A stretch of 9,748 nt of DNA from positions 1 to 9,748 of IMG/VR virus record IMGVR_UViG_2671180603_000017. One strand, 5' to 3'. Positions 2,629 to 5,023 of this stretch are shown here, one piece after another (position 1 is the stretch's first letter; every line of letters begins with the position of its first letter). The notes under the pieces are model-generated. The model was given only the letters and a program-made list of their open reading frames with translations. It made no database searches and was not told where the DNA came from. The translations under genes were made by a program, and so were the position numbers. Source of the stretch: a virus. Its lineage: Duplodnaviria > Heunggongvirae > Uroviricota > Caudoviricetes.

Positions 2629-2865
2629 TTAAAAAGGGCGGACATCAGCCAGCAATTAAACCGATGCCGCCAACTGGTACTTCACACAGCAATGTCGTTA
2701 TTTACAACCGGAGGCGCACTCCCACCATTTAAATTTAACAGACAAGACCGACTCTTTATGGATACCGGAAATGCGCCTTCGTGTTGTGCCCGGTTTTATT
2801 TCACCACCTCCGGGCTTTGGTATGAGGTGTACTGGCAATAGCGGACACTACCATTTGTTCTTTTT

Positions 2866-3594
2866 TTAAGCAGCCATCTGATGATATTTTTCCCTGAAGG
2901 CTGCCGGGGAGATATTCCCCAGACGAGAGTGACAACGCTGACGATTGTAGAAAATCTCAATGTATTCCCGTATTACTGAGATGGCTTCATCCCGGTTATT
3001 AAAACGATAGTGGCTCAGGCTCTCATTTTTCAGCGTTCCCCAGAAGCTTTCCATCGGAGCGTTGTCGTAACAGTTACCTTTACGCGACATTGATGTTTTC
3101 AGACCAGACTGCTCCTGTATGACCCGGTAATCGTATGCGCAGTACTGTGAACCTCGATCAGAGTGGTGGATTAGCCCGGCAGGTGGGCGCTGGCTCCTGA
3201 GCGCCATAAACAGGGCTTTACCTGTCAGCTCTTTTGTCATGCGCTCTCCCATGGCGTAGCCGACAATTTCGCACGTATAAACATCTTTGATGCCAGCGAG
3301 GTACAACCATCCCTCCTGTGTGGCAACATACGTCAGGTCCGCCACCCAGACCTGATTTGGTGCTGTAGGAGCGAACGTCTGGTTCAGCAGATTTGGCGCA
3401 ACTGGCAGATTGTGGTTCGAGTTCGTAGTCGCTCTGAACTTGCGTTTCTGCTTACAGCGTAGCCTTAGCTCCTTACGAAGACGTGCCAGTCGGTCACGAC
3501 CAACGATGATGCCATTCTCTGCCAGCTCCGTCTGGAGCCGCCGGGTTCCATATGTTTCGCGAGTGCGGATATGTGCCACCTTAATCTCCAGTTT
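2866..3594 (-). pseudogene. IS600-like transposase OrfB, C-terminal portion (DDE-type catalytic domain)
   Basis: Transposase-like sequence ...NQVWVADLTYVATQEGWLYLAGIKDVY...HHSDRGSQYCAY...SMSRKGNCYDNAPMESFW.... The track ORF 2866..3966 is artificially extended into the antisense strand of the IS911-like fragment. Confidence 0.75.
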
Positions 3595-3595
3595 A
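3381..3595. repeat. 215-bp direct repeat of internal IS600 sequence (partner copy 4272-4486) flanking the IS911-like fragment
   Basis: Near-identical runs read directly in the sequence. Confidence 0.85.
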
Positions 3596-4271
3596 GGAGA
3601 GGCTACCAGATGGGACGCTGGCTTGCTGGCAGGCTCATGAAAGAGCTGGGGCTGGTCAGCTGTCAGCAGCCGACTCACCGGTATAAACGTGGTGGTCATG
3701 AACATGTTGCTATCCCTAACTACCTTGAAAGGCAGTTCGCCGTGACCGAGCCAAATCAGGTGTGGTGCGGTGATGTGACCTATATCTGGACGGGTAAGCG
3801 CTGGGCGTACCTCGCCGTTGTTCTCGACCTGTTCGCAAGAAAACCAGTGGGCTGGGCCATGTCGTTCTCGCCGGACAGCAGGCTCACCATGAAAGCGCTG
3901 GAAATGGCATGGGAAACCCGTGGTAAGCCCGGCGGGGTGATGTTCCACAGCGATCAGGGCAGTCATTATACGAGCAGGCAGTTCCGGCAGTTATTGTGGC
4001 GATACCAGATCAGACAGAGTATGAGCCGGCGCGGAAACTGCTGGGATAACAGCCCAATGGAACGCTTCTTCAGGAGTCTGAAGAACGAATGGATGCCGGT
4101 GGTGGGTTACGTAAGCTTCAGCGAGGCAGCTCACGCCATAACGGACTATATCGTTGGATATTACAGCGCACTAAGACCGCACGAATATAACGGTGGGTTA
4201 CCCCCAAACGAATCGGAAAATCGATACTGGAAAAACTCTAACTCGGTGGCCAGTTTTTGTTGACCACTTCA
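3596..4271 (+). mobile_element. IS3-family (IS911-like) element, 3' fragment including the right terminus (...GGCCAGTTTTTGTTGACCACTTCA)
   Basis: Encodes an OrfB C-terminal portion (..[56 protein letters not shown]..) ending ...[29 protein letters not shown], which I recall as IS911-type; terminus ends in CA. Confidence 0.7.
3598..4263 (+). pseudogene. IS911-like transposase OrfB, 5'-truncated fragment
   Basis: The first codons of track ORF 3571..4263 are encoded by the duplicated IS600 segment; the true IS911-like reading frame begins internally with no native start. Confidence 0.7.
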
Positions 4272-4272
4272 G

Positions 4273-4575
4273 GTTCAGCAGATTTGGCGCAACTGGCAGA
4301 TTGTGGTTCGAGTTCGTAGTCGCTCTGAACTTGCGTTTCTGCTTACAGCGTAGCCTTAGCTCCTTACGAAGACGTGCCAGTCGGTCACGACCAACGATGA
4401 TGCCATTCTCTGCCAGCTCCGTCTGGAGCCGCCGGGTTCCATATGTTTCGCGAGTGCGGATATGTGCCACCTTAATCTCCAGTTTTAGCCGCTCATCACT
4501 TTGTTTTCTGTCTGAGGGTTCATGCTGTACCCAGTTGTAATAACCGCTCCTGGATACACCAAATACCTGACACAT
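4273..4575 (-). pseudogene. IS600-like OrfB N-terminal portion, interrupted at 4272 by the IS911-like terminus
   Basis: Track ORF 4198..4575 matches IS600-like OrfB (MCQVFGVSRSGYYNW...NLPVAPNLLN) and then diverges at the junction. Confidence 0.7.
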
Positions 4576-4610
4576 CGCTTCAATGGGAAATTGTTGTCGC
4601 CATTGTTCGA

Positions 4611-4913
4611 TTAACGCGTATTTTTCAGCGACTCCTGTGCAAAATACGCTGTTGCTTTTTTTAATATATCTCGCTCAAGGCGAGCTTCATTTAACGCCTT
4701 ACGCAGTTGCAGAATTTCAGATTCCAGTTCAGCCACCGTGCGGGAACCAGGAGTACCGAGCCCTTTTCTGGCGGCGGTAACCCATTGTCCTAAAGTGCCT
4801 TCAGGAAGAGATAATCGGGAAGCGCCTTCACTGATCGAAAGTTGATTTTCAGGAACCGTTCTGACAGCTTCGGCTTTGAACTCTTTAGAGTAACGTTGGG
4901 TTTTTCTGCTCAT
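4611..4913 (-). CDS. IS600-like OrfA (transposase N-terminal HTH and leucine-zipper protein, 100 aa)
   Basis: Track ORF MSRKTQRYSKEFKAEAVRTV...ILKKATAYFAQESLKNTR, typical IS3-family OrfA; followed by an overlapping orfB in the -1 frame. Confidence 0.8.
   Translation of the reverse strand: MSRKTQRYSKEFKAEAVRTVPENQLSISEGASRLSLPEGTLGQWVTAARKGLGTPGSRTVAELESEILQLRKALNEARLERDILKKATAYFAQESLKNTR
4655..4662 (-). promoter_or_regulatory. Programmed -1 ribosomal frameshift site (A AAA AAA G) joining orfA to orfB
   Basis: A7G run in the orfA frame (UUA AAA AAA GCA). The orfB frame is open from this point down to 4273 (read codon by codon), as in other IS3-family OrfAB fusions. Confidence 0.6.
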
Positions 4914-5023
4914 TATTAGCTCCTTCTGATGCCATTCTATTTCAGGAAGGAGTGTCCGTTAAACTCAGGCTACCTCAGTGGTATCTTTACTGAAGTTCTC
5001 ACACAACCAGTAAGGAAATGAAT

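Follow-up and report, generated by a model that had tools for sequence, protein, structure and literature searches.

An apparent nested IS600/IS911 scar at a single-N contig join in a Shigella sonnei draft scaffold

The apparent nested scar, in which one IS600 element is split by a fragment of IS911 and an internal IS600 segment occurs twice, is very probably an assembly artefact produced where two contigs were joined by a single N. The analyzed window, a stretch of 9748 bp, is the entire public record CXDK01000186.1 of a Shigella sonnei draft genome (GCA_001252175.1). Window and record are identical at all positions except 1044, 3595, and 9606, where the record has an N and the window an A, and these are the only Ns in the record. 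Since the base at 3595 is an N, the base at the alleged junction is a placeholder, and the join of IS600 position 493 to IS911 position 574 was never observed in sequence. The nested IS scar is not a real feature, and its component IS elements are ordinary and known. Both IS600 and IS911, as well as the nesting of one in the other, are well known in Shigella.

Contig structure of the scaffold

Each of the three Ns is a single base between blocks that no reference shows side by side. At 1044 a fold-back of the region upstream of rha faces IS600 position 699, at 3595 IS600 position 493 faces IS911 position 574, and at 9606 the DUF977 region faces a restart of the sequence 264 bp upstream. Six families of direct repeats were detected in the window, each of which spans exactly one N: four straddle 1044 (D1, D2, D5, and D6), one straddles 3595 and terminates at this N (D3), and one straddles 9606 and begins just past it (D4). 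This is the pattern expected of contigs that would overlap but have been laid end to end. Together, the Ns, the break in homology at each of them and the repeats across each of them establish that the scaffold consists of four contigs joined by single-N gaps; what these gaps truly contain we infer rather than take from reads.

Contig 1, which carries rha copy 1, meets contig 2 at the first gap (1044). The sequence to the left of this gap (944-1043) is a reverse-complement fold-back of the loop upstream of rha, and the sequence to its right begins inside IS600. Contig 2 has a unique core comprising rha copy 2 and its upstream region (1611-2822, minus strand), and this core is flanked by two arms of IS600. 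In reference coordinates, the left arm is IS600 699-1264 (1045-1610, plus strand), and the right arm, which stops at the second gap, runs from IS600 1264 to 493 (2823-3594, minus strand; 99.6% match to the reference). The left arm is a third IS600 piece that had been overlooked, and it is a perfect (100%) inverted copy of 2823-3388. An ORF encoding a Rha protein of 295 aa (1564-2451) extends into the IS600 end.

Contig 3 starts after the second gap (3595) with IS911 574-1249 (3596-4271, plus strand), which is 100% identical to a 1249-bp copy in S. sonnei CP061367.1 (L029). It continues with IS600 from 706 to 1 (4272-4977, minus strand; 99.9% match to the reference), which retains an intact orfA and, up to 4977, the left terminal repeat. 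The unique part of this contig (4978-9605, plus strand) is the early region of a Rac-like prophage with 99.4-99.8% identity to S. sonnei 53G and other complete genomes, and includes a 96-aa ORF, DUF1391, cI-like and cro-like genes, ydaT, ydaU, ydaV, and DUF977. Contig 4, to the right of the third gap (9606), is a stub of 142 bp (9607-9748, plus strand). It is a 95% copy of 9343-9484, that is, a restart from 264 bp upstream of the gap, and is 100% identical to the S. sonnei 53G allele at the corresponding position.

IS600 and IS911 sequences around the second gap

The assignment of the blocks to IS600 and IS911, made previously without database searches, was borne out by reference matches. The pieces in the window share 99.6-100% nucleotide identity with annotated copies of IS600 (IS3 family, 1264 bp) and IS911 (IS3 family, about 1250 bp), and their terminal inverted repeats and transposase ORFs (HTH_Tnp_1, rve) lie at the places expected from these elements. 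Both outer termini of IS600 are in place, with the terminal inverted repeat TGAGGTGTACTGG starting at 2823 (TGAGGTG...) and the opposite end (...CCTCA) reaching 4977, at 99.6-99.9% identity. Its orfA (4611-4913, minus strand) is intact and matches Pfam HTH_Tnp_1. The right terminal repeat of IS911 (...GACCACTTCA) closes 3596-4271; read on the complementary strand it is TGAAGTGGTCAACAAAAACTGGCCACC, ending at 4271, and the matches to this 100% identical block are annotated in RefSeq as 'IS3-like element IS911 family transposase'. Unlike known IS600 and IS911, however, neither element appears as one intact copy in the scaffold.

The layout of the blocks is as the sequence-only reading described it, and the repetition of the IS600 segment is genuine, far exceeding what chance would produce. 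Its exact length, however, is 214 bp and not 215 bp, since the A at 3595 is mismatched with the T at 4486. The first copy (3381-3594; IS600 706 to 493) ends exactly at the gap, and the second (4272-4485) lies 891 bp downstream. An insertion of IS911 into IS600 should leave both IS911 terminal repeats abutting IS600, and 3-4 bp of duplicated IS600 target around IS911. In the window, the left 573 bp of IS911 and its left terminal repeat are absent, so that the right end alone is found (4271/4272), and the repeated segment measures 214 bp and has the gap on one of its sides. That 3595/3596 is not a transposition junction, as had been stated, holds. Since this 'junction' is a single-N scaffold join, the proposal of a real 215-bp duplication, with an aberrant one-ended event or recombination of differently disrupted copies as its origin, is unsupported. 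A filler nucleotide or microhomology at this position was also considered and rejected (IS600 CAGTTT|TAGCC, IS911 CAACCC|GGAGAGG): the extra A agrees with neither IS600, which has a T there, nor IS911, which has a C, and proved to be an N.

The ORF at 2866..3966, taken before for a chimera created by the junction, requires a gap of precisely one base; in the public record no called gene crosses the N, the genes called to its left and right being 2866-3579 (minus strand) and 3610-4263 (plus strand). As proteins, the chimeric ORFs 2866-3966 and 3571-4263 were absent from a collection of about 15 billion proteins. Among 37 fetched loci the IS600-493|IS911-574 junction was present only in the window's own record. 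BLAST returned no contiguous match to it in 5,426 complete E. coli genomes, and scans for the exact pattern found none in species-representative genomes, metagenomes (with A or N as the junction base), or viral contigs. Both halves of the junction did occur in 15 E. coli records, but there they are separated by 404 bp, in the context of a microcin island and in a different arrangement.

On the other side of the IS911 fragment, the junction at 4271/4272 is a genuine boundary between an IS911 end and its target, as had been proposed from the sequence. It occurs with 100% identity in the complete S. sonnei genome CP010829.1 (FORC_011; L009) and in the draft AKNE01000015.1, and the junction together with 1384 bp is 99.9-100% identical to both. 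Likewise, a 125-aa ORF that crosses 4271/4272 was present in the protein collection, a match that led to S. sonnei. The two genomes carry a truncated IS600 (1-706) next to IS911, as the window does, but differ from it in that IS600 position 1 borders another prophage site, a paralogous one homologous to window position 5484, and in that IS911 is full length, with unrelated DNA at its left end. A junction of this type is the likely source of the IS911 stub that opens contig 3.

Comparison with other loci and structure of the site

When contigs 2 and 3 were merged on the 214-bp repeat, the resulting model was 3138 bp long, the exact length of a gap-free contig from a sister isolate, CXAQ01000263.1 (L013). 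The model and the sister contig differ by six mismatches, none of them within the overlap, and the sister carries one intact IS600 at the site. Most likely, therefore, the true locus holds one intact 1264-bp IS600, as in the sister contig. Contig 2 (1045-3594) would have been assembled as the unique rha-copy-2 segment with both ends entering IS600. Contig 3 (3596-9605) would run from its IS911 start through the real IS911 right end at IS600 706 and on to IS600 position 1 and unique prophage DNA. The scaffolder would then have linked the two, keeping the gap as one N. Read pairs from any IS600 copy could connect IS600 707-1264 to 1-706 and would imply an overlap of about 891 bp. A terminal overlap is nevertheless absent because contig 3 opens with the IS911 stub, so that the 214-bp 'duplication' would be a single stretch of IS600 entered two times, as the end of contig 2 and again in the interior of contig 3. 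The stub itself would belong to a truncated IS600-IS911 junction located elsewhere in S. sonnei. At 706, a gap filler that follows the majority should continue along IS600 and not into the single IS911 branch, and the origin of the stub in contig 3 is only partly accounted for.

The order of the contigs was compared with other S. sonnei loci. In the complete genomes 53G (HE616528.1), CP032523.1, CP061367.1, and UGZB01, and in the draft L036, rha copy 1 and the 96-aa ORF are direct neighbours and no IS600 separates them, which means that contig 2 need not lie between contigs 1 and 3. Two independent drafts, CXDK01 and that of the sister isolate, place rha copy 2 beside the same IS600 and flank, and the contig order may thus be right despite the gap. 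Among the fetched loci, an IS600 at the GTGGTATC site was seen in the window's record and the sister contig only, and none of the complete S. sonnei genomes retrieved has one there. The complete S. sonnei genome CP180280.1 (L011) carries the rha-copy-2 segment between two complete inverted copies of IS600, and in the drafts L014-L016 the rha-copy-2 contig retains just 48-111 bp of IS600 at each end.

A possible though doubtful alternative is that the contig order is right and the N hides hundreds of bases of repeat, the locus being a larger but ordinary IS composite. This reading agrees that 3595 is a gap, and departs from the explanation preferred here only in how the gap is filled. The composite could consist of a full-length IS911 inside IS600 at 706/707, the last 214 bp of contig 2 being an over-extension from other IS600 copies, or of a complete IS600 followed by IS911 (149-1249) and IS600 (706 to 1), formed by homologous recombination of two IS911 copies. 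Parts of such structures do exist. In CP180280.1 an IS600 adjoins IS911 149-1249 directly beside rha copy 2, CP010829.1 has the IS911|IS600-706 junction, and a true nest of IS911 in IS600 with a 3-bp TAC duplication is found in CP061367.1 (L029 16967-19482). Moreover, contig 3 takes the minority IS911 branch, as would be expected if that branch were really at the locus. However, the left end of IS911 in CP010829.1 meets unrelated DNA instead of IS600 from 707 onward, and its right end in CP180280.1 is not followed by IS600 706, so that neither composite was found as such in any complete genome. The sister contig, in addition, shows a plain IS600.

Known nests of the two elements resemble the window in part. 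On the one hand, the genuine IS600::IS911 of CP061367.1 likewise has IS911 sequence within IS600, the two elements being oriented to each other as in the window. On the other hand, that nest has both IS911 ends, an insertion at IS600 448-450, and a clean target duplication (TAC), whereas the window has one IS911 end, located at IS600-706, and the gap in place of the other. The pO157-type composite, also found in CP180280.1, shares the adjacency of IS600 and IS911 with the window, and accounts for most of the 865 E. coli records that covered at least 80% of the query. Its nesting is the opposite, a complete IS600 interrupting IS911 (near IS911 position 150 in CP180280.1), and in pO157 itself (L001) there is a GCC duplication. 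The composite is devoid of an internal IS600 duplication.

It is very improbable that the scaffold is right and the gap spans about one base, in which case the isolate would carry IS600 (1264 to 493), IS911 (574 to 1249), and IS600 (706 to 1) in direct succession. Such a scar could have formed if IS911 inserted in IS600 at 706/707 and suffered an internal break, after which 214 bp were copied from an intact IS600 and the ends were joined with little or no microhomology; other illegitimate recombination between differently disrupted copies would be a second route. The right junction is a genuine IS911 end, IS-mediated rearrangements are abundant in Shigella genomes, and the outer IS600 ends lie at one prophage target site, flanked by an almost perfect 3-bp duplication (left GTA, right GTG; uninterrupted sequence GGTGGTA), although these flanks differ by one mismatch and may stem from different IS600 copies if the contig order is wrong. 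Against this, the junction base is an N and the other two Ns are demonstrably joins of non-adjacent sequences, the junction had no second occurrence in any collection searched, the sister contig shows the site occupied by an intact IS600, and two rare events would be needed where a scaffold artefact needs none. If the single-N join were a true adjacency, it would provide a naturally occurring case in which synthesis-dependent repair left a templated duplication within nested IS elements. Finally, that the N is one low-quality base call within a correctly assembled contiguous contig is hardly credible even though it is only one character long, as all three Ns coincide with homology breakpoints, the sequence after the one at 9606 restarts, at 95% identity, from 264 bp upstream, and an ambiguous base inside a contig would show continuous homology on both sides.

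Assembly background and consequences for draft scaffolds

Page et al. 2016 (PMC5320598) describe a pipeline of Velvet, SSPACE, and GapFiller that was applied to 299 S. sonnei drafts; by their account, joining contigs introduces gaps of N, and greedy tools of this kind 'can lead to false joins'. The table entries listed for that study include S. sonnei drafts from adjacent accession series, beginning with CWZ and CXA; CXDK and CXAQ are not among these entries. On the basis of the species and the accession series, CXDK01 was presumably assembled from short reads with a pipeline of this type. The gaps that GapFiller leaves open are mainly repeats (Boetzer & Pirovano 2012, PMC3446322). Similarly to drafts produced with SSPACE and GapFiller (Sanger pipeline), the window has its Ns exactly at contig joins, with repeats on both sides of each N, and the joins fall within multicopy IS elements or paralogous prophage DNA. 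The length of exactly one N per gap would be a product of the same assembly procedure.

The sequence-only reading had itself named a chimeric assembly of separate IS copies, visible in reads, as the case against a real scar; our result nearly matches that scenario, with the N in the public record, rather than reads, as the evidence. The biological interest of the locus is slight, as its unusual part is without sequence support. The case does illustrate that an N shown as an A in a draft scaffold manufactures false junctions, duplications, and chimeric ORFs, here 2866..3966. All three Ns gave rise to a reportable oddity, namely the IS600 fragment at 1045, the junction at 3595, and the repeat of 142 bp that closes the window on the right. 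Such false findings would be averted if Ns were left in place or windows were split there.

We also considered whether polymorphism had stopped a majority-rule gap filler at the contig ends. No polymorphism was found at IS600 492/493 and 698/699 or at IS911 573/574 among 25 IS600 and 4 IS911 copies of S. sonnei. The distance between position 699 of IS600, at which contig 2 begins, and the point at 706/707 where IS911 branches off is 8 bp.

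Gap characters in the scaffold

The window, which comprises the whole of a Shigella sonnei draft scaffold (9748 bp), was compared base by base with its public record (GCA_001252175.1, CXDK01000186.1), and three differences were found: an N in the record is an A in the window at positions 1044, 3595, and 9606. The Ns were apparently swapped for A, so that scaffold gaps look like sequence. Since the record has N at 3595, the critical junction base is a gap character and not sequence. Each of the three Ns coincides with a break in homology. At N1044, the rha-upstream loop folded back in reverse complement (944-1043) lies on the left and IS600 from position 699 on the right; at N3595, IS600 position 493 is set against IS911 position 574; and at N9606, the next 142 bp (9607-9748) are a 95% copy of 9343-9484, i.e., a restart 264 bp upstream. 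Every direct-repeat family reported in the window spans one N only: 1044 (D1, D2, D5, and D6), 3595 (D3, the IS600 repeat, which terminates at the N), or 9606 (D4, which starts directly after the N). Judged from these comparisons, the Ns are contig joins rather than ambiguous bases, and the distribution of repeats across them is the one expected for overlapping contigs laid end to end with a placeholder. The pieces are referred to here as contigs 1 to 4 (contig 2, 1045-3594; contig 3, 3596-9605).

The terminal stub (9607-9748) matches at 100% the allele of S. sonnei 53G and complete S. sonnei genomes at the same place. This contig, either paralogous or alternative, was added at the scaffold end and makes the DUF977 region look duplicated at a spacing of 264 bp. 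The fold-back at 944-1043 is the reverse complement of a loop of ~100 bp within a conserved imperfect inverted repeat upstream of rha (compare locus L036, 2393-2491, and window 2471-2626), with arms GAAGTGAAyTTTGTTGATGCGGTG and CACCGCATCACAAAATTCAC. All Rac-like prophages retrieved have this repeat, in each case in the opposite orientation; window 944-1043, which ends at N1044, could be either a real inversion of the loop in the isolate or a contig-end fold-back artefact.

IS600 and IS911 blocks around position 3595

The sequence-only reading had proposed an IS600 split by an IS911 fragment, with a 215-bp internal IS600 duplication and a non-transposition junction at 3595/3596. Its block layout was correct for the sequence string as presented. 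Against a 1264-bp IS600 copy from the pO157-type plasmid pWar-1 and a 1249-bp IS911 copy from S. sonnei CP061367.1, the blocks are IS600 1264 to 493 (2823-3594, 99.6% identity), IS911 574-1249 (3596-4271, 100%), and IS600 706 to 1 (4272-4977, 99.9%), and the matched regions carry RefSeq annotation as IS600-family and IS911-family transposases. A third IS600 piece that had escaped that reading (IS600 699-1264 at 1045-1610) repeats 2823-3388 perfectly in inverted orientation. Both a repeat finder and base-by-base comparison recovered the direct repeat, with 891-bp spacing, but its length is 214 bp (3381-3594 = 4272-4485, exact), as 3595 is A and 4486 is T. The 366-aa chimeric ORF at 2866..3966 requires a gap of precisely one base, and gene calls on the public record halt either side of 3595, at 2866-3579 (-) and 3610-4263 (+).

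Superimposing contigs 2 and 3 on the 214-bp repeat yields a single intact IS600 at the site. At 3138 bp, this collapsed model (1563-3594 plus 4486-5591) is exactly as long as CXAQ01000263.1, a contig without gaps in a sister S. sonnei draft; the two differ by six mismatches, all of which lie outside the overlap. Contig 2 is the segment carrying rha copy 2, with IS600 at both ends; the same contig in other drafts (L014-L016) has just 48-111 bp of IS600 per end, and two complete inverted IS600 copies bound the segment in complete genome CP180280.1. Contig 3 starts in IS911 574-1249, followed by the IS911-end/IS600-706 junction. The 1384-bp stretch with this junction is 99.9-100% identical to complete S. 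sonnei CP010829.1 and draft AKNE01000015.1; in these, IS600 position 1 borders a paralogous prophage site other than this one, and the left end of IS911 borders unrelated DNA. Another S. sonnei locus is thus known to which the IS911 stub can belong.

Paired reads derived from any copy of IS600 would connect 707-1264 (the end of contig 2) with 1-706 (inside contig 3), and such pairs would imply an overlap of ~891 bp between the contigs; owing to the IS911 stub, a terminal overlap would not be detected, and a single N would be left. Contig 3 follows the minority IS911 branch. Copy-to-copy polymorphism was sought at the contig ends (IS600 493 and 699, IS911 574) and none was found. The Sanger pipeline of Velvet, SSPACE, and GapFiller, used on 299 S. 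sonnei isolates (405 contigs on average), drops contigs shorter than the fragment size; its authors note that joining leaves N gaps and that such greedy tools may join falsely (Page et al. 2016, PMC5320598). S. sonnei WGS records of the neighbouring series CWZ*/CXA* appear in part of that paper's supplementary table, and CXDK is not among the entries listed there; we infer that CXDK01 was made by this pipeline. GapFiller closes a gap only when both extensions overlap and the fill fits the estimated size, and the gaps that it leaves open are mainly repeats (PMC3446322).

The duplication with its non-transposition junction depends on base 3595 and thus on the record N. The IS600/IS911 scar is very probably an unclosed scaffold gap in repeats, and the internal duplication with its junction is then not a real feature. 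The useful outcome is methodological: N-to-A replacement in draft scaffolds makes false junctions.

Genuine IS combinations and searches for the junction

Given a gap, the true state is most likely an intact IS600. That the gap conceals a larger, ordinary IS composite is a reasonable second possibility, though less likely than not. Three genuine IS600/IS911 combinations occur in complete S. sonnei genomes, none with the IS600-493/IS911-574 junction. In CP010829.1, IS600(1-706) abuts IS911. There (L009, 9599-11553) and in locus L010, IS600 cut at 706 adjoins a full-length IS911 at its right end, while the left end of that IS911 has unrelated DNA beside it; the original nested insertion was later rearranged, presumably by recombination between IS copies. 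CP061367.1 (L029, 16967-19482) has a full-length IS911 inserted at 448-450 of a full-length IS600, where TAC is cleanly duplicated (3 bp), and serves as a positive control for real nesting; GTG is duplicated at its outer IS600 ends. CP180280.1 and pO157 plasmids show the reverse nesting, IS600 within IS911 near position 150, a composite that accounts for most of 865 high-coverage E. coli records.

A real scar exactly as scaffolded is highly improbable. The 100 bp across 3595 had no contiguous BLAST match in 5,426 complete E. coli genomes; in 15 E. coli records both parts of the junction are present, separated by 404 bp within a microcin island of unrelated context. No exact match was found in species-representative genomes, in metagenomes (scanned with either A or N as the junction base), or in viral contigs, and among 37 loci fetched the junction was in the window's own record only. 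The chimeric ORF products were not among ~15 billion proteins.

Prophage site and contig order

The outer IS600 ends occupy a single site in a Rac-like prophage, where uninterrupted relatives read GGGCTTTGGTGGTATC and the window reads ...TTTGGTA / IS600 ... IS600 / GTGGTATC. The flanks GTA (2820-2822) and GTG (4978-4980), compared with the uninterrupted GGTGGTA, would form an imperfect 3-bp target duplication. However, rha copy 1 (1-966) runs straight into 4978 onward, with no IS600 between, in 53G, CP032523.1, CP061367.1, UGZB01, and draft UEAP01000173.1. Among the loci fetched, the IS600-end/GTGGTATC junction was found only in the window's record and the sister contig, and the ...TTTGGTA/IS600 junction is part of the rha-copy-2 segment in every record having it. 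This continuity and distribution make the position of contig 2 doubtful, and its true place may be somewhere other than between contigs 1 and 3. In that case, the GTA/GTG "duplication" would consist of flanking bases from two separate copies of IS600.

The 295-aa Rha ORF of copy 2 (1564-2451, -) is an exact protein match to WP_052974466.1 of S. sonnei, which is on seven contigs, including complete genome CP180280.1 with a full-length IS600. In the window, the IS600 end (1045-1610) replaces the last ~11 nt of this gene, so the ORF reads into the IS. The paralogous rha genes (76-990 and 1564-2451) share 300 bp at 100% identity (92-391 = 1613-1912) and are ~82-92% identical elsewhere; each derives from a different Rac-like prophage remnant in S. 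sonnei. That the two are neighbours here rests on the N1044 join and is probably not real. At 5453/5454, the window is without an IS630-family element (343-aa DDE_3 transposase) that separates a 67-aa gene from DUF1391 in 53G, CP032523.1, and UGZB01; its absence is a lineage marker common to the window and draft UEAP01000173.1.
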